Below the pieces are notes generated by a model. That model had not been told where the DNA came from. It was given only the letters and a program-made list of their open reading frames with translations, and searched no databases. The position numbers and the translations under genes are program-made. DNA of 61,422 nt, the filler included, from Vannella sp. (Eukaryota): NCBI GenBank assembly GCA_023345925.1. It is 4 parts of 4 records of this genome, joined end to end, with 100 filler letters (N's around TTAATTAATTAA, not from the genome) between each part and the next. Parts side by side here need not be neighbours in the genome. Positions count along the whole stretch, not along the records: positions 21,101 to 38,792 come from JAJQQN010000456.1; 3 more parts are not named here. The stretch is one strand, 5' to 3'. This document shows, piece after piece, positions 6,644-59,617 of the stretch (position 1 is its first letter; the number at the start of each line of letters is the position of its first letter).

Positions 6644-8839
6644 TCAAACAAGCTTGGGAGTCTTGATTACCTCCAGTTTGCTTGGTGTCACCCTCAAACT
6701 TGCCTGCTGCCGTCCTCTTTTCCTTCCTCTTGTACGAGAACCAGGAGCTCTGGAGTCATACAAAGGAAACCATTTGAAGGAGTCTCCAAAGAACTCGGAG
6801 GTAGCTGTACCGTCGCAAATGATAATGGAGCCTTGGAAATGGAGGCTCTCGATGGCCTTCCGCACCTCGCAATCAACTTGGTTCCAACGCTTTGCATCTG
6901 ATTTGAGTTCGAAAAGAGCAAAGAATAGCAAAGTGACGTTCTCTTCCTTCACAAGTAGGGCGGAGATTTGATTTCCTGGCGCCGATTCTCCCTCTGGAAC
7001 GCTGAAGAGAATGCGCCGCATTCGCATGAGATTCTCCAATGCCACGGTGAAAGTAGCCGCTGAGAATGCCTCTGGTTTGGGTCCTTCTGTGAAACTGAAC
7101 TCATCTTGAATGAACAAGAGATGGTTCTCCTTGGACTCGTCGTCTTTGAAGATGAGGAGCTTCTCTCCCAACGACTGGCACTGAGAGTGGGCCACAATCA
7201 TCGTAGGCAATTCGAGAACACTTGGAAGCTCTACGATTTGGCTTCCTCTGATGAGGGCCCTCTTTGCCTCCCTAGAGGGTTCTTCAGCGAGGTCTTGTTC
7301 ATCAAAGTCTTCGGAGCAGTACGGAGCGCGGATAACATGTTGGACAGCGCTAAGAGAGATCACACCAGAGCAGGCGCCAAAGCAGACGCTTGCGGAAGGT
7401 AAGAGGGACCGAAGTGACTTGACTGGCATGAGAGGCAGACTCGCGCTCTCCGCAGAAGCCATTTGCATCTTCAAGAGCATGAATTGGGTTGTAACTTTCT
7501 CAAGGGAGGTTGTTTTTTCAACCAGAGCACAGCAAGTGGATGAGAATAGCTCAAGGATGCGTTTCGCAATGACTGAGTGTTCGCCTGTTTCGTTTCGAGT
7601 AGCCCATTCCTGAGTGCAGCCCAAAGAGATTCTTGGAACAAAAAGACAATATTCGTAGGGGTTAGCGGTGATGCTACTCAAACAAACCAAACTCTCGAGG
7701 AGATCTGAGACTTTGCACCCTCCAATCTCTTGATGCGGCGAAATCTTCTCACAAAAGATGGCTTTCGCCAACAGCTCCGGAAAGCACTCGTCCAGCCTGT
7801 CTCCGTTGCGTCTGATGATGAGCTGGAGTCTCTCTACAACAATGTCGCGGACTTGCTCCATTGAGACCGAAGTGGAGGTTTCGAAAGCTTCCAGAAGGCT
7901 TGTCAAAATGTGGCCAATCGAGTCCCAATGGCCTCCAGTCAATCCAATGGTGAATCGAAGAGCCTGATTCCAGTCTGGAATCTTTTGCGAGAGACTCTGG
8001 AACGGAGAAGAAGCCACGAGTGATGCGAATGCATCCTCAGGAACATCTGCCACCGACTTTACTGGGAACCAGCAGATTTGGCATGCAGACGACGTTGCTA
8101 ACATCAGAGCCACGTCGCTTGAGTAAATCGGACGAGGGTAAGAGAAGACGAAGAGTACACGTTCTGAAATCTTTCCTGACAGTCTGACGCCAAGCGTTGA
8201 TTCAATGACCTTGATTGCTCTATCACCATCGGAACCAGAAAGAGCCTCTAGGTTTGCATTCGCGGAGTCGTCAACAAGAACGAAGATCTTTCCTCCCGGG
8301 ACTTGGGAGCAAATGCTGTCGAAGAGCTTTTCAAGGCAGCAGTCGCGAAGAAACTCAGTTTCCATGAAGAAGGATCGAAGACGATGAAAGCTTTCCGGAG
8401 TGAAACGCTCATTCAACAAGAGTGCTTCAATGATCCTCACCACAAGGCCTTGTTGGGGAGTGATGTCTCCTTCATCTGGCTCAGTCATGCTGAAGGTGAC
8501 GGGAATCACCCAATCAGGACCACTGCTTTCCATTCCAGATGTGAAGTATTCCGCCATGTTCTGCAAAGTGGAGCTCTTGCCTCCTCCTGGGGGGCTATGA
8601 ATGATTCCGTAGGGCGCCCGATTTCTCCATGCGCATAGGGATTTTAGGTCAGCCTGGATAAGACGTGCGAGATCATTAAGCTCGATTATTCGGTCATACT
8701 GCTTTCGCATCAGCGCTCTGCCGGTCGGCTTCACTTGGGACCAATCACTCCGCAAACGGAATCCTCCTTGCTGGAGAATGCCTCTAATCCGCTCCATCAT
8801 ATCCTGCTTGCCAAGGAGGTGAACTTGAGAGTTTCTCAT
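6644..8839 (-). CDS. P-loop NTPase with putative C-terminal restriction-endonuclease-like domain (Crinkler/RHS-effector-like)
   Basis: 731-aa intronless ORF. Walker A SPPGGGKSS, Walker B IFVLVDD, helical motif LTGGHW, C-terminal LLIFKDD..LLFIQDEFS. Confidence 0.6.
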   Translation of the reverse strand: MRNSQVHLLGKQDMMERIRGILQQGGFRLRSDWSQVKPTGRALMRKQYDRIIELNDLARLIQADLKSLCAWRNRAPYGIIHSPPGGGKSSTLQNMAEYFTSGMESSGPDWVIPVTFSMTEPDEGDITPQQGLVVRIIEALLLNERFTPESFHRLRSFFMETEFLRDCCLEKLFDSICSQVPGGKIFVLVDDSANANLEALSGSDGDRAIKVIESTLGVRLSGKISERVLFVFSYPRPIYSSDVALMLATSSACQICWFPVKSVADVPEDAFASLVASSPFQSLSQKIPDWNQALRFTIGLTGGHWDSIGHILTSLLEAFETSTSVSMEQVRDIVVERLQLIIRRNGDRLDECFPELLAKAIFCEKISPHQEIGGCKVSDLLESLVCLSSITANPYEYCLFVPRISLGCTQEWATRNETGEHSVIAKRILELFSSTCCALVEKTTSLEKVTTQFMLLKMQMASAESASLPLMPVKSLRSLLPSASVCFGACSGVISLSAVQHVIRAPYCSEDFDEQDLAEEPSREAKRALIRGSQIVELPSVLELPTMIVAHSQCQSLGEKLLIFKDDESKENHLLFIQDEFSFTEGPKPEAFSAATFTVALENLMRMRRILFSVPEGESAPGNQISALLVKEENVTLLFFALFELKSDAKRWNQVDCEVRKAIESLHFQGSIIICDGTATSEFFGDSFKWFPLYDSRAPGSRTRGRKRGRQQASLRVTPSKLEVIKTPKLV

Positions 8840-17238: not shown

Positions 17239-20200
17239 ATGGCGCTTATGCGGCTTTGTCTCTTTGCTTTCCTCTTCTTCTTCTCCCAAGTTGAGGCTGG
17301 ATGTCCTGTTCAGTCGTACAATGGTACGTCGTATGACTTGAACCCTTTGCATCGCACTTCATCGTAAGAAACCTTCCCATTTCCGTTCACGGCAGTTCTG
17401 ACCATTCATTGCAGGAAAGGGGACTGGACTCTTAGTTCAGGTACCACTTACTACTTGAACTTCTGTGGCTCTACAGCTATCAAGTGTAGCTATCCATCGC
17501 AAGCCCTGTGCGAGTACGATGGTGTCCTGCCGAGTCGCTCCTGGTCTCTTGCCAATTACCCATCTGCCACCTATCAGCAGTATAGGAGCGGTTCTGAGTA
17601 CGGTATACAGATCAAGTACTCCTCTCAGGAGTACTGTTCCCGTACTGCGCCTCTGGTCACTTACGTCAACGTCATTTGTGACCAAAGTGGCTCTGATGGT
17701 TTTTTCACGAATGTTGTCACCAATGAAAAGGCTTGCACTGTTACTGCACGGTCAGTACCTCGATAGTGCGATGACGAGAACTGACAAAGAAGCCTTTAGC
17801 TTTCTGAGCATCCACGGTTGTGGCAAGCCAATCCTTCCCTCAACTACCCGAAGCCCCAGTAGATCACCAGCTTCTTCAGCATCTCAGCTCCCATCCAATC
17901 AGCCGAAACCCCCCGCTTCAAAGTTCCCACTGCTGAAGGGTGCCGAGCATCTCGGGTATGGCTTCAACATGTTTGCAAGCAATACCGTGAGCCAGTTTGT
18001 TGGCGCCCCATTGACCACACCGATCATCACTGGCTTCAAGTACTCTCAAAACAAGAGCTGGGTGACTTCCGAAGGGACCTGGAGCGTGCCAGACCAAGTT
18101 ACTGTCTTCAGTGGGACTCCTTCTGGGGCACAATCATTCTCCTACCAGAAGGTAGCTCGCTACTTTGATCAAGTGGCTGCAAGCTATGGACTCTCCGTAG
18201 ACTACGTGTGGCACCACATCCCAATCGGAGTGAGCGGCTTTTTCAGTAACATCGACCAGGCCCTCAGGAAATCTGGAGGAACCTTCACCTTTACCAAAGA
18301 AGAGATTCCCCTTTACTCACTCCGCACCATACCTGACCAGTCCCTTGAGAGCGCATTTGTAGCTGCAGTTCAAGATCTGACTGGAAATCCCTCTGATGCA
18401 AAGTGCCAGGCCTTTGTAGAGAAGTATGGAACCCACGTCCAAGTGGGACTCGAAATGGGTGGACTTCTTTGGATTGGAGGTGCAGTTGCTTCCCAAAGCA
18501 TGGTGAGACAGTCCAGCACAACAGTTGGCGTCAGCGGACATGTGGCTATGATCAGTTTAAAGCTTGATACTACCTTGAACCCGTATTCTGGGTTGAACCG
18601 CAATGTCCAGCCCGCGTGGGAATCTGATTTGAAGTCGGTGCGAGTCGGAGGTGACACTTCAATAAGGCAGCAAACCGGCTGGTACAAGCTCTGGGTTGAA
18701 TCCATTACCGGAAATCCCTCCAGGATTGGTTATCGTCTCGAATCAATCACCGAATACGTTTCTCAGGTGTCCACGAGCGCAGCCAAACGGCTATCTGATT
18801 ACATTGCGAAGAAGCTGTCTAACACACCTGATTCTAGTTATTCTGCTCCGGAATCGATGATTCATTTGAGCAGTGGACCAAGTACAAATGCTGGTAGCGG
18901 TCTGCTGAAAGGATTATCGGTTTGGTCAGATGATGACGATGATTTTTATCACAACCTTTGGTTTACTTGGGATTCTGATATTAAGGATGCGCCGATAACT
19001 TACTCCAAGCCATTAATGATCAGCTGGGCTCAGAGAAACACCTTTGGCAGCGCACCAAGAACTACAAATAATGTTGCAGAAGATCTACTGGCTACTCACC
19101 CTTTGCGGACTCTCTCTCTAATACAAAACTACGGGCAATGCGGAGGATATGCTTGCCTGCCAGGTCTTGAAACTTTGGGAAATGGATTTGATATCGTCAC
19201 CGGGGCCCTTTTGCTGCCAGCCTTCAATTGGACATATAATAACCACCAACTGTACACCAATCCCACTACGAAGAAGACTTACACTTTTCCAGATCAAGTT
19301 CACTTGAATCCAGACTCAAGCTCTTCCACCAGGACCTCAGTTTACAAGTCATTCGAAGAGTACTGCCGAAACGCAACGTACAATAGTGCCTCTGGGTGGA
19401 ATCTCCCCATCATCTCCTGGGGAAGCGAGACCCAAGCTATTGAAACGGCTTTTACCAAAGCACAATCGGTGCTGGCAGTGGCTTCCCAGCAGTACATCGC
19501 CTATGCGCTGAGAGTGCAATCACCCCTTCCATCTCCTGATCTGGTCAAAGCGTTTTCCAAGTTGCCAACCTCGTATGACTTCCAGATGTACCTCAAATTC
19601 ATCAAAAGATGGGGTACCCATGTGATCTCTGGTGCCAACTATGGAGGGAAAGCTCAGATGTACTCCATGCTCGATCAAAAGTACTACACCTCCAACAGTG
19701 AACAAGCCGTTGAAAGTGCATTGGGCGTTCAGTTCAAAAACTGGAAACTTGGCGTGCAATGGGGAACAGACAGTTCTTCTTCAAGCTATGAATTCAGTTC
19801 CGCCAGTTTCCAATGGATGAGCTTCTCTGGGGGCGACTCTCCATTAGCAATGACGAACTCATGGGACCAGTGGATCACATCCACAAAGTATGCTCCCGCT
19901 CAGGTCGCTCGTATTCTCTCTCCTATTTGGGAGCTTTTCACTGGGGTTCAGTCCAGTAATCTTGCAAAAGCCGTGAATCAATATTACCGAGAGTCTGATG
20001 AGAATTTGACCAAGCTACCTCCCGTTGCCATGTCCATGCAACTCGGATTGGACTTCTACTCAAACTCTGGCACCAGCATGTACGCTGATTCTGGGTCCAC
20101 CACTGCATGGAACCATAATGACGGGTTGGCTTCTGAGACAACTTACCTCACCGCCGGTGTGGAAAAAGCAGATGCCATTTGGAAGCTCCCAAAGGGAGCA

Positions 20201-20401
20201 ATGAATCCTGGGGTCATTCGGCCAGGAAACTGTCAGACCAGAGAAAACCCTGATCCTAGTGACCCAGAGCAGTTGTTCTGTCCCACTGATACGTGGTTTT
20301 ACAGCTTAGCTCGCCAACGGTGCGACGCAAAAGGAGGAGAAGGAGCTCCTAAAGACTGTTTCTCTGCCAAGAGCTACCAATGCTGCCAGCTTCTCTTCTA
20401 A
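17239..20401 (+). CDS. Secreted MRH-like domain + two tandem MACPF/perforin domains + Cys-rich C-terminus (about 1020 aa, 3 exons)
   Basis: Signal peptide MALMRLCLFAFLFFFSQVEA. Introns 17364-17414 and 17751-17799 keep frame. MRH-like YDLNPL..YYLNFC..C..SIHGC. MACPF signatures YGTHVQVGLEMGG (18425-18463) and WGTHVISGANYGG (19610-19648). Confidence 0.85.
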
Positions 20402-30442: not shown

Positions 30443-30550
30443 GTTCGTCCCCCCAGAGAGCCAAAAAATGCCGTTAGGCGGTCCCTGTGGCTTCCTGCTC
30501 CGTTGTAAGGGCTTTTCTGATGTAGGAAGGGGTGTAATGGCTGGATCTCT

Positions 30551-32746
30551 ATGTTTTGGGATCATTTGGGGGCTTCCAGGACCATGCTGTTGGGTCGGTC
30601 TTGGAAGGGGCCGGGCTTGAGAGGGCCGTTGTGGATCAGGTTCCAGTTGGTGGCTGGTTTAGGCGCGGTAAAGAGCTCTTCAGGGACTGCGGTGCGACGA
30701 CCGGTGTCGGAGGAGGCTTTAAAGTACTTGGTTTTGGGTGGAAAGGGCGACGGAGGTGGCGATGGGGACCTTTCGAAGGATCTGGAGGACAATCAGGAAG
30801 GAAAGGTATCGATTGATGTCCTAGCAAAGCAGTTGATTCGGCAAGGAGAGCTGGAGACTGCTCTGCGCCTTGCAAAGCAGAACCCAACGGAAGTGAAGGC
30901 CTCTACCTACAACCTACTCCTCCACGACCTCTACGGAGCCCAGAAAAGTGATCAAATGATGGATCTCTTCGAGTACATGCTCTCAAATGACATCCACGCC
31001 TCCACAGGAGCTTTCAATCTCACTTTGCAAGTCCTTTGCCAAGGGCGCAAGTGGAGGCGTTCCCTCCAGCAACTGGAGCTCATGAAGGAGAAAGCAGTGC
31101 GTCCTGATGTAATCAGCTACTCAACCGTGATCGAGGGACTATGCCAAGCAGGGGAACGCAACAGAGCGGTCAGTTTGATAGAACAAATGCACACAGAAGG
31201 CGTTGTTGCCAACCAATTCACCTACACTGCTCTCATCAAAAGCTTCTGCGAAGACAATCAATGGAAGTTTGCCCTCCAAGTCCTCCAGCAGATGAACCTG
31301 TCCAAAGTTCTGCCGGACGTCGTCACGTACACGATCTTGATTGATGCGTTATGCCGGAATAATTGTATGAAGGAAGTGGCTGATCTAGTGGATCTGATGC
31401 ACCGTACCAATGTTGTACCGGACGTTGTCACTTATAATACTCTTCTGCGGCATCATTGCCAGCATAATCAGCACAATCTTGTTGAAACAACTCTCTCACA
31501 GATGAAGGAAAGTGGAATGGAGCCGAATATTGTGACGTACAATATCCTTATGACTGATTTATGCCGCCAGAAGAAGCACTTGGAAGCTTTTAACATGCTT
31601 CAGGAGCTTCGGACGAATCCTTCTCTTCGTCCAGACGCCACAACGTACAACATCCTTATCAGATACCTGTGTGAGAGTGAAGGGATAGCAACTGCTGAGA
31701 AACTCTTGGCGCAGATGGTCCAAGAAGGAGTGTCCCCGGATGTATTCACTTTCAACATTATGATTGGGGCTCTGGCAAGTTCTAATTTCCCTCTTGAAGC
31801 CCGCGCTATGGTACAGGACATGAAGCAGTACAATCTCAAGGCCAACATCTTCACATTCAACACTCTGATAAGTTGTTTCTGCCGGTCTAATCTTCAAGAT
31901 CTGGCATTGGAGACTTTGGAGGAGATGAAAGGAATGGGAATCTCCCCGGATGTTATCTCGTACACTACCATTATCAGCGGGTTCACTCGAGTGAACCAGC
32001 ACGAACGGGCGTTGGAAATAGTGAGGAAAATGACGGAGCAAGGCATCACTCCCAATGTGTTTACCTACAACTCACTTGTGAATGGCTTCTGCCAGGCTGA
32101 AAAGTACGACCAAGCCATGCAACTAGTCACGCAAATGGGGAAATTACGAATTAAGGCCGATGCAGTCACTTTCAATACTCTCATTCGCTCCTTCGGCCGC
32201 AGCGGACAGACTGCCAAGGCTTTGGAGGCTCTCGCGATAATGAAAAGCATGGGCATTCACGCTAATGTCATCACCTACACCACTTTGATTGACACCTTTT
32301 GCCACGCCCAGCAGCTAGACCAGGCTGTTCAAGTCTTAGCGGATATGCAAGTGGCTGGGGTCCGTCCCAACCCTCAGACTTTCAATACTTTGCTCAAAGG
32401 CTTGTGCCACGCGCAGATGCTTGATCGGGCCATGGAAGTTTTGGAGCAAATGGAAGAGAGTGGAGTGTCACCGAATGTCTTCATCTTCAACACGCTCCTA
32501 AGCGGACTATTTTTCCTTAACCGAGGGGAGCAGGCTTTCGCATTAGTTCAAAAGATGGAAGCTACAGGTGTTCGGAAGAACAGCAATACCTATCGAATGA
32601 TTCTGGCTTTCAAACTCCGCCAAAGTCCTGCAGAGGCTTTGGCCTTTGCCAAAGAGATGAAAAGAGACAAATACCTGCAACCTGATCAAAGTCTCAAGTT
32701 GCTTTTAGCCAAAGTGGCAGAGTTCGCCCATAAAAGAAGCACGTAG
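30551..32746 (+). CDS. Pentatricopeptide repeat protein (about 16 P-type repeats), probably mitochondrial
   Basis: 35-aa repeats PDVISYSTVI, PDVVTYNTLL, PNVFTYNSLV. Arg/Gly/Leu-rich N-terminus. Confidence 0.95.
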   Translation: MFWDHLGASRTMLLGRSWKGPGLRGPLWIRFQLVAGLGAVKSSSGTAVRRPVSEEALKYLVLGGKGDGGGDGDLSKDLEDNQEGKVSIDVLAKQLIRQGELETALRLAKQNPTEVKASTYNLLLHDLYGAQKSDQMMDLFEYMLSNDIHASTGAFNLTLQVLCQGRKWRRSLQQLELMKEKAVRPDVISYSTVIEGLCQAGERNRAVSLIEQMHTEGVVANQFTYTALIKSFCEDNQWKFALQVLQQMNLSKVLPDVVTYTILIDALCRNNCMKEVADLVDLMHRTNVVPDVVTYNTLLRHHCQHNQHNLVETTLSQMKESGMEPNIVTYNILMTDLCRQKKHLEAFNMLQELRTNPSLRPDATTYNILIRYLCESEGIATAEKLLAQMVQEGVSPDVFTFNIMIGALASSNFPLEARAMVQDMKQYNLKANIFTFNTLISCFCRSNLQDLALETLEEMKGMGISPDVISYTTIISGFTRVNQHERALEIVRKMTEQGITPNVFTYNSLVNGFCQAEKYDQAMQLVTQMGKLRIKADAVTFNTLIRSFGRSGQTAKALEALAIMKSMGIHANVITYTTLIDTFCHAQQLDQAVQVLADMQVAGVRPNPQTFNTLLKGLCHAQMLDRAMEVLEQMEESGVSPNVFIFNTLLSGLFFLNRGEQAFALVQKMEATGVRKNSNTYRMILAFKLRQSPAEALAFAKEMKRDKYLQPDQSLKLLLAKVAEFAHKRST

Positions 32747-32775
32747 CAAGGCAATGCGGAAGATTTTTCAAATCA

Positions 32776-35700
32776 TCACATGTCCCACTCGTCGTCATCA
32801 TCCCACTTCTCGTCTTCTTCGTCTGTTTGCTCAATGTGGATTCTGCGGGAATCCATGGCCTTCATGAGGAGCCCCACCATATCCCCGCTGTCTTCCATTT
32901 GAATTTCTTTCCTTGCACGAGTTGTGGTTTGTTCTCTCTGGGACCGAGTGGGTCAGTTGGAGGTCAATAATGTTGCTACCTGACTCTTACCTTCTTTAAC
33001 TTGAAGCTGAGCATTTCTTCGTGCATGGACAAAGGACTTTCTTCGCTTGGCTTGGGGGTTCCTCTGCTTACAGGGGCTCTTCGAGCGACTGCTGTCGCTG
33101 GGAGAGCAGCTGGAGGGAGTTGCATTACTGGAGGGGGCGGTGGTGGCAGAGGCGCTGGAGGGGGAGGAGCGGGAGCAGGAGGGGCCGGCTTTTGCACAAT
33201 GACTGGAGGTGCGGGAGGGGCCGAAAGTTCAGCGTCTTCAATGAAGATATCCATTTTGCGTTCTGCAAGCTCAAAGGCGAGTTCAAGGTCATCCGATGAC
33301 TCGATTACTACAAGATCGTCCACATCGTCTTTGTACTTGATGGTGACACCCTTCAGATCCAGTGTGACTTGGTACTTGGCTGAAAGTTGCGAAAGAAGAT
33401 TTGGAAGGCTTGTGGAGGTTGACACTTTGATGATGACACTCTTTCCTTTGTAGTTGGCTTTCACAATCTTACTATCTCCTCCAGGAGATGGCATGGCCGC
33501 TGGTGAGTCAATTACTTTTTGCAAAACCGCTGGAGTAGGAGCGGGAGGGCTCTCAATGTTACTTTCGCTTTCAATTGGATTTGGCACACTTGCTGGAGCA
33601 GGGATGCTGCTATCGATTGTTTCCACCTGGATTACTATCTCTTCCATCGGCGGTGAGTCTTTGGTGAAGTCTAAGTGTTTGGAAAGACTTTCCTCCTCAT
33701 TCACTGGAAGATCGATTGTAATCTCTACTTCCTCTTTCAAAATATCCGGAAGACTTGCTGATATGTTGGGTGTATCAGGTATGTCAGACATTTCAGGTAC
33801 AGACATGTCAGACATTTCAGGTACAGACATGTCCGACATTTCAGGCATGTCGGGCAAATCAAACACATCAGATTGGCCCAATTCCTTTGGCAAATCCTCT
33901 CTCAGAATCAAAGTCGTCTCTGATTCCGTGGGCTCTGGGAGCTGAACAATTCCGTCAAATTGAAGGTCCTCCACAAGAATTTTTTGTGTAATTGATGGAG
34001 AGGAGGAGACCTCAAGGGTGGGAGCTGGAAGTCCCAGGTAGGAATCGGTTTCATCAAGAAGAGATTGGTCCACGCTCAAATCGCCCAGACCAAGGTCACC
34101 ACCAAAGTCCATTAAAGAGGAAAGATCGTCTAGTTCGTTGGTGAGACCAGCCAACGCTTCTTCTTCGTCCTGTTGCTTTTGCCTTTCCGCCTCAAGAGAC
34201 TCTTGAATCTCCCTTTCCTTTTCAGCTCGGAGTTTCTCTTGCTCTTCTCGCTCACGTTTTGCTATTTCTTCCTGTTCTCGCTGTCGCTGTTCTTCAATGA
34301 TTCTCAGTTTGTCTTCCTCCTCTTGATTCTTCTGCCATCTTTCTCCCTCCAACCGAAGAGCTTCCAGTCGTTTTCTCTCTTCTCTTGGATCGAGTTCCAC
34401 TGCCGGTGCCAGCTCCAGCTTTCGTACTTCTTCCGGAGGAGACAAAAGTTGGGCTTTCTTCCACTCGTAATAGAGATACTCTGGCGAGGTCTCGTGGAAA
34501 AGGAATCTGCCAGCGCCAAGTTAGTCTCCTTCAAGTCTTTCTGTCTTTGGTGTGTTCTCACTCAAACTTGCCAGGTTCGCCAAATTGTTTCTGTTTGATT
34601 TGCGTTTCTGTTTCCTGACCGCGCGTGGCGACTATTGTTGCGAGCTTGTCGATGAAGGTGCGCATTTCTTCATCTGCTGGAGGTTTAGGAGGAGCTGGAG
34701 GTTGAGGTTCTGGCTCGGGGGCGGGAGTCTCTTTGATTGTCTGGACTGGTTTCTTGGCATAGTGGTAATACAGGTAGTCAGGAGAGGTTGGATCATACAA
34801 GAAGCTGTTAGTGATGGTCAGATAATTGCGAAAGGGCGGAGCTCGACATAGCTCACTCATAAGTGGGGTTGCCATAGGTACGCTCTATCAACTGGCCCTC
34901 ATATTCTGGTCCTTTCTCCGCAATAATGGCTGCCAGCTTATCAATAAGCGCTCGACGGGCCGCATCTGCTGGAGGTTCAGGCGCCAGAGGTTCTTCTTCT
35001 TCGTGAACAGGTTCCTCTTCAGGAGGACCTCCAAGAAACACTTTCATTTGGCGATAATAACGGTTCTCCTCTGAGCGATCAAATAGGAAGCTGGGAGCCG
35101 GTTAGTAGCTCATCAGAACGAACCTAAACTGTGTTTCATAGCTCACTGGAAGTTGGCGTGGCCTTTCTTGTTGCTCTTCAGAGTCTCTTCGAACTCAGCC
35201 CCGCGAGTTACAACAACAGCGGCCAACTTATTGATAAAGTCTACTGAATCGGAATTCGCTGGAGGTTGTGGTACTTCCGGCTCCTCTTCCGATGTGGTAG
35301 GAGTGTCTTCTCCTCGTCAGTAAAGGAACCTCTCCCTCCGTCCCTTGGAGGACTCACCGATAATGGAGACTATTTGAATAGCAAGCTCCGCTCTTCGGAT
35401 CTCTTGTTGGTCGTTTCCTTGTGCCAAAGTGGAGAGGCTCCTTATCAGCTCCATTCCATTCGCATTGGCCAATAGTGAGATATTACTCTCTGGGGAAAGT
35501 CACTGTTAACCTTCTGGAGGTGATAAATGAAGAGAACTCAAACTCACCCGAGTTGCTGATTAAGTTACTGAGCACAGAAAGGATGGCGGTCTGCCTATCA
35601 ACACTGCTACCCTTCAGAAGACTGGAGAGGTGAATTACAGCGCCATCCTGAATGGACAACTCTTTGACCTCGTCAGAGGTGGAGACTATCTCATACACTT

Positions 35701-37321
35701 GAAGGGCCTTCAAAATATAACTCTCCTCTCCAGAGAAAGCAAAGCTCAACAGCTTAACCAGTCCTTGAGCGCCTGCGAAGGACTGAATGGCTTTTGCTAA
35801 TCATCACAGTCATGGTCATGTGGGGTCCTTCTGGAGCACACTTACCATTATCAAGAAAGATGGGCAATAGTGTGAATGCCACAAGTATGCCTGTGCGGTC
35901 TGGAAAGTCAAGAAGAGCTACTAACGAAGAAATGGTGTCCTGCTCCTTCAAAGCAGCTAACATGGCTGGTTCTTTGCTCCATTGGAACAATAATGGAACC
36001 GCAGCAGTCACTGGACCTGCCTGTTTGGATCTGATAGCGTCCAGGAACACAGGCAATCCTCCTCCTGCAATGAATTCTCGGCGCCGGGCATCTTTTCAAT
36101 GTTACTAAATACCTTGCTGAAGGTAGAACTCTCCATTGAGATGGCTTACCATCATTCAATACACTTCGGAAGATAAACAGGACGTCCTCAAGGGTTTCTG
36201 AAGAGACGTCTGGCCGCTTAGATTCATCCAGAAAGATTTTGAGCGGAACAACAGCCAGTAAAGCTTGGGGATTGTCTAAGTCGGGAGGCCTTGGTGATTA
36301 GCAGCGTTCAATAGTGGAGAGGAGTCCTTACGGGCAGATATAACGCTGAATAAGTGCATCACCATTGAGGCTATCACAGGGTGATGGGAACTCGCTAAGG
36401 TGAACGTGCGAAGGAGCGGTTTGATTCCTCGAGAAGTTATTTCCTCCACTGCAAACTCACAGAGGAGAAGGGAGGAGAGGACGTTAAGCACATAAGTGAA
36501 CATAACTTCCTCTGTCTGCAGTGGAAGGGTGAGGAGCATGCGCAGAAAGACGAGCGTCCCCTCCTCTCTAAGGAATGCCTCCTGATTGTGATGGGGTTCA
36601 CAGTCGGTAAGGACATTGTTGATAGCCTTCAGAGCCATCTTTTGAACGCGAATATCAGTGGATTGTACCATTCTTAGCAGAGCTGGCACTCCCCCTTCCT
36701 CACGAACGATCTCACGGACTTGGGCTAGAACTCTCTCAGCATGCAGAGGAAGCCATCAGAGGTGACTTACGGGTACTAGTCATGTTAATGAGAAGCCAAG
36801 CAGCCTTCACCTGAACCAAAGGCTCCGTTTCAGCCTGAAGAAGAGCGATGATGAGCATCATGATGCTTGCAGCAAGGATATCAGCCGTTCCCTGCTCTAT
36901 CGGTGGCCCCAGTACCATTCAGTACCTTCCAAAGGGCTCCATAGAGATCTAGTACTAACCAAGGACGGAAATATTGATCAATCCGTTGAGTGCCTCCACT
37001 TTAAGATGTTCATCGTCCTCCAAAAGGAGATCTACGAGGGCTGAGATGGCTCCCGCTTCATAGAAGTCCTCCTCATGTCCAGGATCTAAAGGCTTGTTAG
37101 TGGGGAGGGTGTGGCGAAGGAGCATCCGTACTGGCTGCGCGGTTGGCGATCTCCCGTGCCGCTGCAACAACGAAGGTGTTGGGAACGTTCTCATCGTTGA
37201 TGGCAAGTACAAGGCGAACGATCTGCTCTAACGGAAACTGTGCGAGCTTCGCTGCTGCCTTGTTTGGCCTTACTTTCGTGTACGTTGCCGTGACAAACAG
37301 CCCCGCATCGCACATCGTCAT
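32776..37321 (-). CDS. ARM repeats + 3x SURP + coiled coil + PB1 + poly-Pro + WH2-C-A (candidate Arp2/3 nucleation-promoting factor), multi-exon
   Basis: ARM exons (EAGAISALVDLL, EEGGVPALLRMV, GGGLPVFL, DGAVIHLSSLL) are joined by intron 35307-35357 to SURP repeats (IDKLAAIIAEKGPEYE..FLYD..YLYY). PB1 motif IKYKDDVDDLVVIESSDDL. WH2 MHEEMLSFKLKK. Last exon MVGLLMKAMDSRR..EEDEKWDDDDEWDM*. Confidence 0.8.
33781..33851. repeat. Coding 24-bp tandem repeat (about 2.8 copies; MSDMSVPE)
   Basis: atgtcagacatttcaggtacagac repeated. Confidence 0.9.
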
Positions 37322-37587
37322 CCTGTGCCGAGCCCACCGAGGAGGCGAAAATATGACCAAGTTCAAAATATCTGATAAATATCTCTCGTGATCATTGATT
37401 GGTGGAAAGGGATGGAGCGCGCTGCTTCGAGGGGTCGCGTAAGTGAAGAGAGCTAGGGAGATGTTCAAAGGCTGACTTGTTGTATTGTAGGCCTCACGTG
37501 GGAGTGGGAGGAGAGATAATGTTCGCCCTGGTGAGTAGGGCTGTTGAGAAGGATGGAGAGTTAACCTTAACTCTTGGGCAAGAGCGT

Positions 37588-38410
37588 ATGCCAAGCTCTG
37601 AGAAGGATGAAACTTTGGTTCTGAAGGACTTGCCGCTTGATTGCCACTCTGGTGGTCTGGAGCAGGCCTTGGTGAGTATGAGCATTCTTCTGTCTTCGTT
37701 CTGACGAGACGATTGCAGAATGGCTACGAAATCAAGCCCATTTCAATCATGTTCCACTGTGATGCTTCCAACAGCTTCACTGGGATCGCCATGGTTCAGT
37801 ACAGCTCGATTGAAGACGCCACTGCAATGCTCTCCACACTGCACTGCTCTACTCTCCAAGGGCAGAAGATCCGAGCTCAGTACAAGTACAAAAAGCTCGG
37901 TATGACCTTCAAGCCTCGCTTAGTACGTCCTTTCCTCATACATGAACAGAGGAGATGGAGGAATACCAGCAGTTCTACGATCAGCTCAAGTCCTTCCGCG
38001 ACAACGATGAGATCAACGAGATGCCTTTTGGGATGGGGTTCACCCCGTTCCAACGCAAGCTGGTTCATCAGATCTGTGGGAAGCTTCGTCTTGAGCACGA
38101 GTCGATCACGGAAGGGTCGGACCGATACGTTCTTGTGTCCAAAGTGCAAGCCAAGGATTGGAGCCCTTCGACCCGAGGATCTTCGTTTCCTCGAGGAAAG
38201 AAGCAACCAGAGTATGTAGTTTGTACTAATGGAGGGACTTCCAACTGATGGCCGGGGATCAGGTCACAGGAGACCGTCCTTCGACCTTCCCGGCCTGCGA
38301 AAGGGCCTGACGGCACAAACGGGTTCAAAGAAGACTTCCAGATTCTTCGTCGTGTTCAATTGGGCCTTGTCAATGAGGAGTCCTCATTCACAGAGCACGA
38401 GCGAGGTTAG
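37588..38410 (+). CDS. RRM + R3H + SUZ-C RNA-binding protein, 4 exons
   Basis: RRM (LVLKDLP..FTGIAMVQYSSIEDA..LQGQKIRAQY). R3H (FTPFQRKLVHQICGKLRLEHES..RYVLVSK). After intron 38212-38262 the frame reads RPAKGPDGTNGF (SUZ-C-like). Confidence 0.82.
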
Positions 38411-48200: not shown

Positions 48201-51200
48201 ATGTCCGTTCACGCGGCCATTCGGGAGGGGAACCTGGTGAAGCTGAAGAAGCTGTTGCAAGGCGAAGGAAAGGAGAATGAGGTGAATACGCAAGGTAAGA
48301 GCTGTCGTACGGGGTTGCACGGCTTTTGTGCTTTGTTGAGCTTCTCCCTTCTGACCGTCGTTTTCCCAGGTTTGGCTCCGATTCACGTGGCGGTAGTGGA
48401 AAACAAGATATTGATGATACGAGCTCTCCTGCGACGAGGAGCAGATGTGAATGCGCTTGACCCAGAAGGTCGCAACGCCATCTTCCTCGCGGCGGAGGTT
48501 GGACAAATCAAAACGCTGGAGTTGCTCCTCAAGAAGAAGCTGTAGGGAGCTCTTCTTCTTCTGCAAAGCCCTCTCTTATGTACAACAGGAAGCCAAACTG
48601 CCAGGATGCCGTGCCCGTGCTGGTGAAGCAACTCACCATCTTTCCAGAAGAACTGGCTGTTATCAAGCTTCTCCAAACATGCTCAGAGCTAGGAGCTGAC
48701 GTAAGAGACCCTCCACGCACCCTCTTGTAACGTACTGAGCGAAAGAACTCAGTTGTCCATCAAGGACAAGACCGGAAACACTCCTTTGCACTACGCTGCC
48801 TTGTACGGGGCCATTGAGATTGCAAGGTTCCTTTTGGAGAAGAAGGTGTCTTCTGGTCCTGTCAATCTGTGAGCTCGATCTGCTCCCGATCTCACGAGGG
48901 AGGCGAGAGGACCGTTTGCTCACTACGAAGGGGAAGGGAACGGGATACTCCGCTTCACATCGCCATTCGTGAAGGGCATGAGTCATTCGCTCAGCTGATC
49001 CTTTCAGGGACTTGCTCTGTCACCACACAAAACCTGGCGGGTGAAACAGCACTTTACTTGGCCAAGTCTTGCGGGATGGTTCCAGTGATTCCGTTGATTG
49101 AAGGTGGGTCTCTGAGACCACTCCAGGCTAACGAACTCAATTTTGAATAGCGCACAGCAAGAAAGCGGACAGGCGAGTGGATATGGCTGTCCTACCTTGC
49201 AAAGGGGCGCCGCTGAAACCCCGTTTTGGAGTAAGTCAGACTTCAAGTGAGGTTCTGGAAGCGATTAACGTGTTTGGATGGTCAGCATGTCACCCTAGTG
49301 TATCAAGATAACGTTTACTTGTTAGGAGGATGCAACTCTGCCATCTTCTCGGACGCAACGGAGTTCTACAAGGATATTGTCCGAATTCAATTGGGCTCAG
49401 GCATGGTCACCGAGCACCCTTGCAGTCTCCCCAAAACCCTTGCGGGACATTCAGCGTCACTTGTGGGACGTCAAGCCTTTGTCTCTGGTGGCATCTCTGC
49501 TGACAAGACTCGCTCAAAAGATATTTGGGTTCTTGACGTGGAGACGTTCGTGTGGGAGCAGCTGCAGACTATTCCTTACCAGATTCCTTTGGACATGCAC
49601 ACGACAACGGTGTCTTCGCGTATTGAAGTCTTCTTCTTGGCTGAGTTACGCGGCGAATTTGCCCACTCTTTCAACTATGATTTGGTCAAAGCAGAGTGGC
49701 GGAAGATTGATCACGAAGTTGGTGAACGACCACGTTATCGAATGGGATACACCTGCACCAGAGTGAGGAACTCTTTGTTCTTGTTTGGAGGACGGGCCCC
49801 CTCTGGAGAGCTCCTAGGAGACTTGTGGACGTATGATCTTCATTCTCACTCCTGGCGACAGCTCAACTGCCCTGGCACTTTGCCACCACCTCGTTGCTTC
49901 CACAGTGCAACTCTAATGGGCGATATTCTTTTCCTCATTGGGGGTCAAGCGGAAGCTCCACTAATTGAGAAATTCATTTATGCTCTGGACACCAAAGAAG
50001 AGGTTTGGTACCGATACTTTATGCCGATGGATGTTTGCCCTAGGAGCTTCTCTGGATCATTCTTTGCCACCCGCTCACGACAATATCTTTACATTCACGG
50101 TGGCCGGGAATCATCTGAACTTATTCAGGTTCAAATCTCTGATTCATGTGCTGATACGGCTCCAGTTTCTTTAGCACTTCCAGTGATCTCTGAAAATGCT
50201 TCTAGAAGGATGAGTGTCGCCTTGCCTCGTCCCAAAACTCAGCGGAAAGAGAGGAAAGTTACTTCTGTTGATTTGCTGGGCTCTCATTTCAGTACATCAC
50301 TCCGAAGTATTGAAAAGCACATGACTGTACTGTCTCCTAGAGAATCCTCTGCATTGGATCGGGTTCCAGTGTCCAATTTGATTCAGATGGCTGATGATCT
50401 GAATGAGGTTTCCTCTACACTCTCAGCAGATGTCCTCCATTACATTGCAATCCTCCAAACTTTTTTGGATCCAGAGAGACAGCCAAACGAAGCTGCGGGG
50501 GATATGGCAATGCTGCGTGATACGGGAGAAGAACTCACTTTCTTCTGCCAAAATCGTGCTCCTGTTTTGTCCGACCTGACAAAATCTATGAGAGCCTTTG
50601 AACTGAGACAAAAGGCTGTAAGATTCCAGGTTGCTCAATTTCCAATTCATCACCTCCAATCAATTGCCATACCCAGCGAGTACAAGCCCAATCCACTACC
50701 AAGTGATTTTGAAGGATGGGAGTCGAGCCTCAAGAAGCGCTTCTATCTCTGCGAGGAACTCATGAAAACAGAAATTCACTACGTCAACGACTTGGCGTTG
50801 ATGATTGGATTGTACTTGCGTCCGCTTCAGAATGAGTTTAGCGACCTTTTAACTTCATACGAATTGACTACTCTGTTTAAGAACACCGAGGCTCTGTTTT
50901 CTCTTAACAATCGCCTGCTGAGTCGTCTTCAAGAAGAGCAGAAACGACCTTATGAAGAGCAGGATGCGGGTGGCGTGTTTGTTGAGTTCCTGGAGGAGCT
51001 GAAAGTACAGTACGTATGTTACAGCGCAAATCAGGTCGCTGCCAATGATTTGTACCGCCAAGCCCGTTCCAGCAGTCCAGACTTTGAAAGCTTCGCTCAC
51101 TTGGTCACAACCCTCCCAGAAGGCAAAGGCCATACTATGGACAGCTACCTCATCAAGCCATTCCAAAGGATTACTCGTTACTCCCTCCTCCTGAAGGAGC

Positions 51201-51721
51201 TCAAGAGTACTACCCCCGAAAGCTGGGCAACATACAAGAACTTCGAGAAGGCGCACCTTGGGATTAGCCAAGTTGTCCAAAGCGCGGAAGACTCTAGGAC
51301 TCAATCAGATTCTCTGATGGTTGTAGTTGCCATTCAGACCCGCTTCATCACAACCGTGGAGGACACAGATATCATGGGACTGCACAAGCTTCACTATTCA
51401 CTACAGGGAGAGTTACGAGGTGCAGTTATCAAATCTGGAAAGAAATCTCGAAGAGTCAACTTTTCTTTATTCTTATTCCAAGAGAGACTCATTTTAGGAG
51501 AGCCCAGCAAGACTGGACTGCTCACAAAGGTGGCGTCAATAGCAATCGAGGACTTGAAGGTCTGCCCAAGTGCTCACAAGAATGGGCGTTATCCTTTCCT
51601 TATCGAGGATGTTTCAAACGCCTTCCAAGCAGAGATCCACGCGTCTTCTATTCAAGAGCGCGATGATTGGCTTGAGGCATTCCGCAATGTTCACCTCAAA
51701 CGCCTCACATCTTCCAAATAA
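48201..51721 (+). CDS. Ankyrin + Kelch + RhoGEF (DH) + PH protein, multi-exon
   Basis: ANK exons 48201-49100. Splicing gives the Kelch motif PRFG|HVTLVYQDNVYLLGG. DH motifs EELMKTEIHYVNDL and SYLIKPFQRITRYSLLLKEL. PH domain ends ERDDWLEAF. Confidence 0.88.
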
Positions 51722-54713: not shown

Positions 54714-54795
54714 ATTAGAGCGAAATTTCGCTCAATTTCCTGAACTGCCTCAATTCCCTCCAATATTATGAATTATCTCTCAATAATCATCATTT

Positions 54796-57573
54796 ATGAT
54801 CACGATCGGTGGCGGCCATTCTTTCGGTTTCTCTGTGATGATGAAGCGCGCTACAACTGGCGCTCCTGTTCCCTTGAGGCAGAAGGCTGTCCGTACGGCT
54901 AGTTTAGAAGGTTATACCGCACAACTACAAGGATCAAGCGTTCCGGAGTCAGATTGGCTCGCTTTGGCGGAGAATGCCTGTTTGCACCGAGCTGTGGTTG
55001 GAGAGGTCCTTATCTTGGAAGGCGAGAAGCTTGATCATCTGTTAGTTGTAATGGATGGTTCAGTGAGCGTTGGAAGAATGCATACGGGAGAGAAGACAAC
55101 TCGCGTCATCAAGTCTCCCGAACTTTACGGAGAAGCTTGGCTGCTTAACCAGCCCGCTGCTGTCTCTGTAACAGTGATTAGCGATTCGTGTACCGTGATA
55201 CGCCTCCACTTGGATCTTGAGATGAGCAAACTCTTCACAGAAGATCCTTCCTTCAAAGAAGGGTCCTCTACCAACGGTGTTCCCATTTCAGACTCTCCTA
55301 TGTCACCGAGATTCCTTCCAAACAGTCCCATGGCTCGTACCCTGTCAGTGAGGCAACTGATCAGCCAATCCCCCAAAGATCGGCTCAGCCATGACGCTCG
55401 TGTCGGCTCGCCGAAGGAGATCCTTCTACCCGTCAGTCGAATTGCTTCAGATCCGAGCTCTGCCGACTTCATGGAGTCGCTCAGAAGGAAGAACCTGTTC
55501 TATCAGATTGCTATGAAACTGCTTTCCCGCCTTCAGGACTCAATCCGAGCTTTCGAAGCGAAACACTCCAAAGAACCTGTTGCGTTAAAGAAGGATCCGA
55601 AAGTGGTCAATGCTATCTCCAACGAGGTTTCTGCACCTTCTAGTCGCCACAGACGCACTCCCTCGAAGACCTTTGTTGGAAAGATGCTACACCGCGCCGC
55701 TGCTGTAGCTGGACTGGAGGAGGCTCAGGCTTCTCCCGTCCCTTCTGTGCCCCCAACTCCAACTCCACCGGTGGAAATGATCAAAGAGACGAAGAAAGCC
55801 GTCGACAAAGCTTCTGAGAAGTACGTGAAGAAGTTCCGCTTGCCAAAGATGGAGAAACTCTTGAAGGAATGTGAAGCTGCGTGGCAGCCAGAAGCCGAAA
55901 ATCCTTTGGAGGGGCGTTTGTTCATTGGGGAGATGTATGTTTGCTTCCTCGGCAACGGATTTGCTTTCCATACCAAAGCTGTTGTCCCACTATCTCAAGT
56001 TGCCTCGTGGAAGGTGGCTCACTCCCGACTCTGTCTCGGAATGAAACCAGGTGAAGGTACAGAAACGAACTATGTTTTTCTCCTCAAAGGGAGCCAGACT
56101 GAAGAGCAAATCCAGACCATCCTAGGAAATCACGCAACGAATCAGAAGCTCCTTAAGCAGCGCCCTGTGTCTCTGCAGAGAAAAGAGTCTTGGGTTCTTA
56201 AGCATCACATTGATCCTGTTGCCTCAGAGGCTTTCAACTTACAGGACTGTATTTTGCTGCTTGATTGCTCAGAAAGGCATGTCTTCAAGTCTGGAGAAGT
56301 CATTATTACTGCCAACACTCGCCAGCAGATGCCCGGGATGTGGAAAATCGCCTCAGGGCGTGTAAAAGTGGAGTCAAAGGACGGCCAAGTAACTGCAGTT
56401 CTCGGAAAGAACTCTTTCTTTGGTGAAATTTCGTTTTTCTTCCCCGAAGTCTGTATGACAGCTTCCATTGTTGCCTTGGATGAGGTTGTAGAGGTGTTCT
56501 TCTTGCAAGGGGCCAAACTCTTCACTCATTTTGCGCGTTACCCAAACTTTGGAGCTCGTTTCTATCGCTACATCGCTACTATTGCTGCTCACCGATTTGA
56601 AAGGTTCAATCGAATGTTCCTTTCGCAGTACTCAAATCATCCCTTCTGCCAATCTACTGCACAACTCCACCTTGAGCCTGGATCAGAGCAGCCAGAAGAA
56701 TTCATGGTCCAACTTACCAATCAAGCCTTTAAGTTCTCTTCCAGTCAAGGCCAAGTTGGAAAAGTTGGCTTGGCGGACATTGTGTCCATTTCTCAAGGCG
56801 CAGATTCGTCCATCTCCATTCAGACTCGCTCAGAGCTCAATTTGAGCCTCAAGTTTTCAACAGACGCTTCCAAATGGTTCGTTGCTATTGATAGTGCATG
56901 CTTTAGTTCCTACGAAATCAAGCTCCTTCGTCCTTCGGAGAAGCGTTCTATGTTGCAAAATCTTTATCGCACAGCAGAAGATTGTGAGATGCGTTATACT
57001 TCTCACTCTGGAGATGTCGTTGAGCAATGGCTTTATAATCCTGTTCGTGGGACAATTATCTCTCTGGCCGTTGATCGGCATGTGCAGTTTACCTGGGACG
57101 GAGTTCGGTGAGTCCACAATCTAAACCCAACACTCACTCACTCTTTCTTCAGCTTCACCAGCACAGATGAGAAGGGAAAGCCCTTCCCCGGTTATGGAAC
57201 TTGGGACGGTTTAAGGATTGCCTATTATCCAGACACAGTCCCAAGTAAAGAGTCCGAATCGGACCTTTACTTTTTGACTGATCGTCAGCAGAAGGAGCGG
57301 ACTCTGTCCCTTTTTTGGTATAATCCCGTTATGAGCTTCCAAGCAGTCAATAGTGTGGATTGTTTTACCATGCACAACACAATCATTCAGCGCCATGAAA
57401 AGTTTGACAAAGCTCTTCGCTTCAAAAGGGTCCACGAAGCAGAAAGCGTTCCTCCTTTCTATTTCATTGCTGACACTCTCACACCAGCCCCGCTTCTTCT
57501 CTTTATGAGTCTCGCTCTGCCAAACATAGCAACCGAACTGGCACCCGACTCTCCCTTCTACACCCTCGAATAA
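54796..57573 (+). CDS. cNMP-binding + GRAM + cNMP-binding + PH-like protein, 2 exons
   Basis: cNB1 GEVLILEGE..VVMDGSV..LYGEAWL. GRAM EGRLFIGEMYVCF..VVPLSQV. cNB2 FKSGEVII..IASGRVKV..FFGEISF..TASIVA. Intron at about 57108-57152. Confidence 0.85.
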
Positions 57574-57678: not shown

Positions 57679-59617
57679 TCAGTGGGTTTTTCTGCCCTCA
57701 AAAGCTGATTTCCTGGTTCCAGACAAAATAGGGCTCGCTGAGGTATGGCTCTTGGTGTTGAGTTTGATCTTGGACATGAGAGATGTCGTTGGTGCATCCT
57801 TGAGCTCCAAAGAAATGCAAACCAATCCAGTCGCATCATCATATGAAACATCGGAAGAGGTCGGATCAGCGTTAACGGGTCGAGGTAAGGCGATGGATCG
57901 CTCGATGGGAAAAGAGAATTCGTCGTTTCCGATAAGCATGAGACTCTCCAATTCTTTTGGGATTAACTCACGGAGGCTATTCACTTGTTCTACTCGAATG
58001 AACAGATTGTCTTCTCTGATTCTTACGACAATCTGTCCTGTCGCGATTGTGCGACAAAAAACTTTGATGTGAGTGGGACTCAATCCGATGCTCACTTGAA
58101 GTGGCATGTTAGACTCAAATTTGTGCCGTTCAACCTCAAATTGAAGGAGAGAGGTTTGTTGTTGGAATTCAGAGCGGAGTGCCGATGCCAGTCGCTGAGT
58201 TTCTTCAAATCTCTTCAAATGACCTTGAAAGCTTGCGCTGGCAACAAAAGCGACACACGTCGTGTGATCTACTTTCCCTGGGTACTTTCGGTAGTCCGAG
58301 GGTAGCTTGGTATTGGATTCAGACTCAGAGTGCGCTCGTGAAGCAGTTGTCACATCCTTCGCGTGTTGTATTAACTCGTTCACAATGAATCTGGGCGTTA
58401 GTGAGGAAATCTGGTTCTCTAACAAAATCATTTGGAGAATCCGCGAAGAGAATCTGGCCTTCACTTGGGACATAAGCTTTGCTGGGAAATCTGACCAACA
58501 CTCTGCTGGAATCCCCAGCTCGTTGGGCAGGATTCCGAGTTCCTCTGGATCGAGGTTGTCATGAACGCCGTCGCTTACACAGAACAGGATGTCGTCTTCC
58601 TCGATAAGGTGCGAAAAAATGCCCCAGTTTCGCAAATCTGAGGAACCATCCTCCTTGAACGGTCCAAGACGCCCTCCAGGATCCGAGGGGTCAGCAGATA
58701 TCTCGCGATTACCAAACGTGATATCGGTGAAGGTACCCTGGCTCGCATTGAAACAGAACACTTTGCAATCTCCAACGGATGCACAGACGAAGTTGCGTTT
58801 TCCCGGGATTGATGAGGGGATCAATACTCCTACTACAAGTGTACAAGTGCCTGACTCCCACAAAGTCTCTTTGCCGAAGCGAATCTGCCGGTCTGCTGCT
58901 GCTAGGGCGTGAAGGAGCTCCTGAGCTATGCCTCGTAAGTCGGTGTAGTCGTTCACAGCCTTTAGGCGTGCCACGGCTGCATTACTAGCTTGTATGGCAG
59001 CATCCCGTGAGTTGTAACCCCACCCACACCCATCAGCTACAGCAACAATCAACCTAGACCGGTGAGCTCAATTATCCAGGAGGAAACGGCTTCTCTCACT
59101 TGTTTGAGTGTATCTCAGTGACCCAATGATCACAAATGGGATCTCCCATCCGTCTACTACGAGAAGGAGGGTGCGGGTAAGTGCTTATCGTCTGGCCGCA
59201 GAACATCGCGCCAAAGGCGAGCTCCTCTTCACATTGCACGTCGCGCTCAAAGCGGTAGAAGCTTCTTTCCGTTGTGCTTGGTTCTTCGGGTGAACTGGGC
59301 TGCGCAGGGGAAAGGGCGAAGTAGTCGTTCAAGTTCACCTCTTTTTGGAAGCGGGTGAGGATCACTGCTGTTTGATCCGTGGTGGATCTACGCAGTGCAG
59401 GAGCCCCTCGAGGTTCCAGAATGTGTTTGATTTCCTCTTCCCATGCCAAACGAGGGAACGAGTCCGAGAAGAAGCCCGAGAGGATCTCCTCCGCCAGACT
59501 GCTTCCCTCTCCAAACGTAACTGTACGACTCAGCCGACCGCTCTTCTCTCCACAGATGAAAGGAAACCTACCTCGCTTTTTCTCCCGAGACGGGGACAGC
59601 GCGGGAGTGGACCACAT
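57679..59617 (-). CDS. PP2C-like (TipA/CG9801-type) phosphatase with C-terminal HSP20-like domain, 2 exons
   Basis: GDPICD, VADGCGWG, SVGDCK, DPGGRLGP, SDGVHDNLDP, GKVDHTTCV. Tail IERSIALPRPVNAD..VSYDDATGLVCISL. Confidence 0.85.

Follow-up and report, generated by a model that had tools for sequence, protein, structure and literature searches.

The window analysed here, a 61,422-nucleotide (nt) stretch of Vannella sp. DNA made up of four joined parts of assembly GCA_023345925.1, carries on its minus strand a predicted gene (32776-37321) whose product joins a head of ARM repeats, three SURP modules and a PB1 domain to a poly-proline region and a tail of the WH2-central-acidic (WCA) type. In the reading that we favour, and consider reasonably likely, head and tail are one protein, the tail likely being an activator of the Arp2/3 complex and the head, more speculatively, being in control of it. 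The new part is the ARM-3xSURP-PB1 head, and the known part is the output module, that of a class I nucleation-promoting factor (NPF). The proposal of a new class of activator, made in a preliminary description of this DNA, was thus overstated, since the output module is standard and only the head is new, as is the case with WAML and WAWH.

Intron candidates were listed from the minus-strand reading of 32400-38200, and script splicing of the window coordinates joined 13 exons into 1300 stop-free codons, from a start ATG at 37321 to a TGA stop at 32776-32778 (a DNA-only prediction; all features of the gene are given on the minus strand). The exons lie at 37321-37132, 37085-36960, 36896-36771, 36724-36332, 36275-36150, 36091-35846, 35796-35548, 35489-35358, 35306-35147, 35090-34857, 34804-34562, 34506-32991 and 32937-32776. 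All 12 introns (37131-37086, 36959-36897, 36770-36725, 36331-36276, 36149-36092, 35845-35797, 35547-35490, 35357-35307, 35146-35091, 34856-34805, 34561-34507 and 32990-32938) are of the GT-AG type and 46-63 nt in length; 10 have a GTRAG donor and eight a CTRAY/TTRAC branch-like match no more than 25 nt from the acceptor, and retention of any one of them leads to a frame stop within 1-80 residues. For introns 2, 3 and 6 the frame-keeping acceptor was picked from two or three nearby AGs, so that frame continuity at these places is not fully independent evidence. The frame encodes, in order, ARM repeats, three SURP modules, a charged helix, an acidic spacer, PB1, poly-proline, a WH2-like motif, a C helix and an acidic Trp tail. 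The coordinates and order given in the preliminary description were therefore borne out, as was its proposal of a terminal exon at 32776-32937, which is joined in frame and carries the C helix and the acidic tail.

At the ARM-SURP junction, intron 8 (35307-35357, 51 nt) opens with a GTGAGT donor, has the branch-like site CTGAC 11 nt short of the AG and would bring a stop into the frame if retained. The 211 nt between 35357 and 35147 are free of ATG in every minus-strand frame, so that SURP1 cannot begin a separate gene there and, with intron 8 canonical, a separate SURP gene was rejected. At the other end, the frame without splicing of intron 12 ends four residues past KLKK, whereas exon 13 is conserved as protein. 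The three introns that split the SURP modules share an identical place in the module and an identical phase, which fits an internal triplication and independently supports those three junctions. The ends of the homologous open reading frames (ORFs) P0001, P0002 and P0080, which are described below, fall near the same exon edges, and this was counted in favour of the gene model, as was the close end of the next gene, 30 nt beyond the stop codon. The ARM, SURP, PB1 and WCA parts thus very probably belong to one gene as predicted.

The last 130 residues form the predicted tail, which probably activates Arp2/3 and thereby branched actin nucleation, as judged from its motifs. A poly-proline region (amino acids (aa) 1172-1212; 33096-33218), taken directly from the sequence and also present in P0001 and P0002, precedes MxxEMLxFKLKK, a divergent WH2-like motif that closes exon 12 (32991-33038) and is kept in 3/3 homologues. 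Exon 13 follows with the central (C) amphipathic helix, M-x3-L-x3-M-x2-RR-x2-I (32833-32886). PMC3298513 gives the C domain as three large hydrophobic residues three residues apart, a basic doublet (RR/KK) and a final hydrophobic residue; the sole match to this consensus in the 1300 aa lies at aa 1267-1282. The acidic (A) tail with the stop codon (32776-32832), again read directly from the sequence, holds two Trp, the last of them third from the end, which is the position noted for mammalian members in PMC7112243, and it aligns to the A region of N-WASP. Among 177,635 PDB sequences the N-WASP CA ranks first, at an E value of 0.13 that is not significant. A rule combining the C consensus, acidity and a near-terminal Trp, drafted after the target was seen, selected 1 of the 1257 stop-to-stop segments in the window, namely exon 13, but none of the 9155 segments taken from 101 unrelated loci.

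Both candidates returned by the last-exon query (2/2) matched, one being an identical ORF, P0079, and the other the metagenomic P0080. The latter begins just inside exon 13 and shares 36/51 identities with it, rising to 20/21 around the C helix, which is near-invariant; both Trp and the terminal WDM are kept. In an Atlas search with P0080 the three top clusters (0.91-0.94) bore no name; the first named one, at a score of 0.89, has WH2 in 19% of its members, which serves as a lead only.

Of 7991 candidates scored with the PB1-WH2 query, two proteins were identified as homologues: P0001 and P0002, each a metagenome ORF that corresponds to exon 12. Both retain the long helix, a DLG[LI]GD motif, PB1, poly-proline and MxxEMLxFKLKK. 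Beyond KLKK they continue to a Val where the donor would lie, in line with the presence of the same intron. Since P0002 has its start within the latter half of SURP3 and holds SURP3-helix-PB1-polyPro-WH2 in one ORF, the SURP-to-WH2 linkage is present in a second organism. Within the WH2-like motif, identities to P0001 and P0002 are 11/17 and 11/13, while the flanks diverge, and the motif is predicted to be helical just ahead of LKK. Pfam WH2 (PF02205), however, gave no match at E<=10 in the window protein, P0001 or P0002, nor did the WH2 stretch find a PDB match at E<=10.

The family is known from the window and a handful of metagenomic fragments. With P0002 the Atlas gave no feature match and only PB1-type structure matches, with TM by query below 0.25. 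A metagenome scan for homologous loci yielded 600 pattern matches, none of them a relative; the WH2-motif pattern gave 101 metagenome matches, 0/101 with a tblastn match to the gene model; and 0/36 and 0/25 pattern matches in the prokaryote and viral collections were relatives. No PB1-WH2 homologue of 84-279 aa was found among 7992 candidates.

Comparison with the class I NPFs (WASP/N-WASP, WAVE/SCAR, WASH, WHAMM/JMY and WHIMP, as set out in PMC3298513 and PMC7112243) shows the same poly-proline, WH2-like, C helix and acidic Trp elements in the window tail, and a C helix that agrees with the family consensus and aligns with N-WASP. In contrast to these proteins, the window protein has an ARM-3xSURP-helix-PB1 head with no detected WH1, CRIB, GBD, WHD or WAHD, and its WH2 is divergent. 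Of the features of WASP-family class I NPFs, the proline-rich region, the C domain and the acidic region with near-terminal Trp were present; a WH2 that matches Pfam or the strict pattern was not, although a relaxed motif of helix plus LKK is there and conserved. The subfamily features GBD/CRIB (WASP, WAWH), WH1 (WASP) and WHD/WAHD/WMD/IMD (WAVE, WASH, WHAMM, WAML) were likewise not detected: Pfam, run on the 13 ORF pieces with exons scanned singly and hence at lower sensitivity, gave no match to CRIB/GBD or WH1 at E<=1 and none to WHD, WAHD, WMD or IMD. Because the WH2-like motif fails both Pfam and the strict consensus, the protein was not filed in the WASP family; yet, given how its motifs are ordered and conserved, a WASP-like function is the reading that fits best, and the predicted protein most likely works like a WASP-family member. 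The WCA assignment of the preliminary description thus held for the C helix and the acidic Trp tail, where the consensus is followed and conserved in P0080, and lapsed for WH2. Among the Pfam families that it had named, Arm, Surp (3/3) and PB1 scored above their cut-offs, and WH2 remained without a match at E<=10.

Close parallels are WAML and WAWH, which are mainly amoebal and, according to PMC3298513, also place lineage-restricted heads on a standard poly-Pro-VCA tail; WAWH types II and III are described in the same text as having long coiled-coil or highly charged regions too. The window protein differs from both, as it has neither the IMD of WAML nor the GBD of WAWH, and neither family is described with ARM, SURP or PB1 in that text. 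PB1 and armadillo have 0 occurrences in the paper PMC3298513 itself, whose supplements or CyMoBase data might hold such a sequence. An ARM-3xSURP-PB1 head on a WASP-type tail was not found in the full-text literature searched, outside which most subscription papers lie. This, together with the lack of a Pfam match to an NPF head, agrees with the earlier statement that the N-terminal region matches no NPF family.

The presence of SURP outside a splicing protein is the most surprising feature of the predicted gene. Module 1 (aa 550-601; 35036-35247; Pfam Surp E 1.3e-4, with module alignment) is split by intron 9, module 2 (aa 628-679; 34750-34957; E 2.6e-8) by intron 10 and module 3 (aa 708-760; 34452-34665; E 9.2e-5) by intron 11. 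All three (3/3) lie above the gathering cut-off of Pfam PF01805 and keep the Gly bend that separates helix 1 from helix 2. Each Surp match spans profile positions 1 to about 33, the remainder of the module being in the next exon, where the second half of SURP3 (profile 33-52) was weakly matched (E 0.34). The best PDB matches of the modules were SF4 and SF3A1, with module 2 closest to the splicing factor 4 SURP (1ug0, E 7e-4). The modules are genuine SURPs in their likeness to the SURP/SWAP proteins (SF3A1, SFSWAP, CHERP, SR140, SF4 and SFRS14; PMC9514218), but they stand in three tandem copies, where the human proteins have one or two, and are fused to an actin-nucleation tail. The same source states that SURP domains are exclusive to splicing-related proteins and bind amphipathic helices of 16-17 residues, with a dissociation constant of ~20 uM for SURP1-SF1. 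The window protein would be an exception to this exclusivity, a spliceosomal helix-binding module having been reused in the cytoskeleton.

The ARM-repeat region (aa ~25-529; 35359-37249) covers exons 1-8, with introns all in phase 1. Pfam Arm matched three of the pieces, two above the cut-off and one just below it. Searching the 50%-representative set with ARM exon 4 produced 73 matches: five single-exon fragments, one of them near-identical and four more distant, plus 68 further proteins of ARM type, with no full-length orthologue among them; the four single-exon ORFs are homologous to exon 4 at 46-60% identity, and near-identical copies exist in the European Nucleotide Archive (ENA). Of the 78 proteins collected, none had a match to the SURP or WCA part and none closed with an acidic Trp tail; a PB1 match was found only in P0001-P0003 and P0069.

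P0069 is the Balamuthia mandrillaris protein KAL6073138.1, in which Pfam domains run in the order ARM, low complexity, PB1 (E 3.3e-12), F-box-like (E 1.7e-7) and WD40 repeats. Its N-terminal ARM part is colinear with that of the window protein over one stretch (E 3e-13, 66 bits, 120/451 aligned positions identical), whereas within the top 20 rows no other full-length ARM protein exceeds 46 bits per stretch. Its PB1 has a similar acidic patch. It has no SURP match, however, and no WCA tail, its output module being F-box/WD40. P0069 was thus rejected as an orthologue and taken as a relative of the ARM-PB1 frame that lacks SURP and WCA; an annotated amoeba thus combines ARM and PB1 in one chain, followed by a different output module. 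Alongside the cNMP-GRAM-cNMP ORF and the kinase-RapGAP ORF of the window, this relative suggests a placement in Amoebozoa. From its domains P0069 looks like an SCF substrate receptor with a PB1. Its annotation, 'Dynein assembly factor with WDR repeat domains 1', seems to cover only the WD40 part.

Between SURP3 and PB1 lies an ER/K-rich long helix (aa 783-858; 34158-34385), marked as a likely single alpha-helix spacer from composition and structure prediction. Its E+R+K+Q content is 73-78% in 3/3 sequences (74% in the window protein, with P0001 and P0002), the best heptad a/d hydrophobic share in the same three is 0.24-0.33, and a single continuous helix is predicted at a local confidence score (pLDDT) of ~90. 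With such composition, poor heptads and an uninterrupted predicted helix, a single alpha-helix is the better reading and the more likely structure, and the coiled coil of the preliminary description was rejected. The helix is followed by a conserved acidic amphipathic helix with the DLG[LI]GD motif (aa 859-895; 34047-34157), kept in 3/3 homologues and without a Pfam match, which might be bound by SURP, by ARM or by another protein. An acidic spacer, predicted to be disordered (aa 896-1086; 33474-34046; pLDDT <50), comes next, with only 50/167 and 20/106 identities to the homologues. About three tandem units of eight residues, of the MSVPEMSD type, lie within it at 33760-33850 (-) and are absent from both homologues.

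The PB1 domain (aa 1088-1166; 33234-33470; Pfam PF00564, E 3.4e-10) carries the Lys of strand beta-1 together with an acidic patch that resembles OPCA. An AlphaFold2 model of this part has the ubiquitin-like beta-grasp fold and matches the PB1 structures of NBR1 and aPKC/Par6 (E ~2e-5), and identities to P0001 and P0002 are 46/77 and 42/78. Type I/II self-associating PB1 domains combine a beta-1 Lys with an intact OPCA motif that includes a Gly; here the Lys is kept in 4/4 sequences, the acidic patch is kept and the OPCA Gly is present in 2/4. A homodimer prediction made without an alignment (score 0.00, mark 0.32) was counted neither way. The domain thus shares fold, beta-1 Lys and acidic patch with the PB1 scaffolds p62/SQSTM1, NBR1 and aPKC-Par6, but differs from them in being internal, immediately before poly-Pro-WCA, and the PB1 oligomers suggested in the preliminary description are putative.

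These features suggest how the protein may work. By analogy with established WASP biology, the poly-proline region would gather profilin-actin or SH3 partners, the WH2-like motif would hold an actin monomer, and C and A would bind Arp2/3. Because no CRIB/GBD, WH1 or WHD was found, control is tentatively assigned to the head. The SURP modules were probably co-opted as general helix-binding modules and, with the ARM repeats, could target the protein and hold the tail off by gripping the C helix or the conserved helix at aa 859-877; binding of head to helix is proposed because both helices match the size of SURP ligands (16-17 residues). The single alpha-helix and the acidic spacer would give reach. 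PB1 may dock on PB1 partners or on itself and so cluster the tails, which should raise Arp2/3 activation; this is proposed because joined VCAs bind Arp2/3 more tightly, PMC5559269 reporting that VCA dimerisation raises affinity for Arp2/3. PB1-driven clustering is plausible though somewhat less than probable, and head-mediated autoinhibition is more doubtful. A more far-reaching version, also less than probable, is that of a new Arp2/3-activator subfamily: SURPs derived from the spliceosome would serve as its switch, gripping the C helix or a signalling partner in place of a Rho-GTPase-binding domain, and PB1 polymers would array WCA tails, all on an amoebal ARM-PB1 frame with a swapped output, WCA here and F-box/WD40 in Balamuthia. 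Were the boldest form of the SURP switch true, the SURPs would still bind SF1-type splicing factors and tie splicing to branched actin. WCA switching without Rho-GTPase-binding domains or complexes of the WAVE/WASH type is known in few lineages, and the window protein provides a testable case with a wholly different head, its 130-residue tail and PB1 being small enough for standard in vitro assays.

Several observations weigh against our reading. The WH2-like motif, besides lacking a Pfam match, fails the strict consensus as given in PMC3298513, its deviations being a His for the second hydrophobic residue, a short linker and an Arg after LKK. In the PDB search the tail drew no significant match, the values being E 0.13 for the window protein and E 6.8 for P0080. 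As no homologue covers intron 8 or intron 12, the ARM-SURP and PB1-to-CA links are visible only in the window, and neither a homologous contig nor a full-length orthologue was found. P0080 sits on a 602-bp contig and cannot be linked with a PB1 exon; its source may be more closely related than those of P0001 and P0002, so that its higher identity alone is not proof of stronger constraint. The OPCA-like patch is without the usual Gly in the window protein and in P0002, and autoinhibition and clustering have no direct support.

The SURP modules could alternatively point to an activator linked to the nucleus or to ribonucleoproteins (RNPs), in which they keep ancestral helix ligands of the SF1 or SF3A3 type and tie Arp2/3-dependent actin to spliceosomes or nuclear RNPs. 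The description of SURP as exclusive to splicing (PMC9514218), the Gly bend retained in 3/3 modules, a Lys/Arg/Ser-rich insert before PB1 in P0001 and Balamuthia P0069, and the nuclear roles of the WASP family reviewed in PMC10330494 are in keeping with this. The insert is missing, however, from the window protein and P0002, Pfam detected no RNA-related family, such as RRM or G-patch, in the 13 pieces, and the window protein has no long basic cluster, only RRR, RKR, KRER and KKR. The suggestion of RNP or nuclear partners in the preliminary description thus found no specific support, and we regard such an activator as improbable.

The divergence of the WH2-like motif raises a second alternative, that C-A binds Arp2/3 while a degenerate WH2 delivers no actin, the protein recruiting, competing for or dampening Arp2/3 rather than activating it. 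Acidic-tail inhibitors of Arp2/3 do exist, Arpin being one, and the failure of the motif in Pfam, in the strict consensus and in the PDB search is what such a binder might show. However, MxxEMLxFKLKK is kept in 3/3 homologues where the flanks diverge, it is predicted to be helical just before LKK, and the canonical order of poly-Pro, W, C and A comes with a full C helix; a protein that only binds Arp2/3 is thus likewise improbable, and activation by the tail remains the reading that we prefer. An artefact of the gene model, with an ARM gene in tandem with a SURP-PB1-WCA gene or a C-A exon that is not spliced on, could draw on the DNA-only model, the two junctions that no homologue crosses and the three acceptors selected for frame, but is very improbable given the canonical signals and in-frame stop of intron 8, the lack of an ATG in the 211 nt that lead up to SURP1 and take in its first half, the single ARM-PB1 polypeptide of the NCBI-annotated P0069, and an exon 13 conserved as protein although the frame without intron 12 splicing ends so soon after KLKK.

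The gene has a neighbour on either side. A convergent, intron-less ORF of 741 aa with PPR-like repeats, read by eye, occupies 30521-32746 (+) at its 3' end; this ORF ends at 32746, 30 nt from the stop codon of the gene, leaving almost no spacer. About 320 nt upstream of the start codon, a divergent neighbour at 37641-38248 (+) encodes an R3H domain (E 1.1e-10), preceded by an RRM-like stretch read by eye that has no Pfam match at 1e-5.

Other genes of the window were recorded in passing. At 2694-5684 (-), RapGAP and protein kinase domains share one ORF, and an ankyrin-like ORF, read by eye, lies before it; the two together are probably an ankyrin-RapGAP-kinase fusion. A 731-aa ORF at 6644-8839 (-) has a P-loop-like motif by eye and no Pfam match at 1e-5, and a 980-aa ORF at 17459-20401 (+) has two MACPF-like signature stretches by eye, a putative tandem MACPF. 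A protein with Kelch repeats and RhoGEF is encoded at 49235-51721 (+), and a PP2C-like phosphatase (PP2C_2, E 4.2e-6) with a further C-terminal part at 57679-59067 (-). Finally, the ORF at 54787-57111 (+) has two cNMP-binding stretches flanking a GRAM domain, an arrangement that we take to be reminiscent of the C-termini of Dictyostelium GbpC/GbpD.

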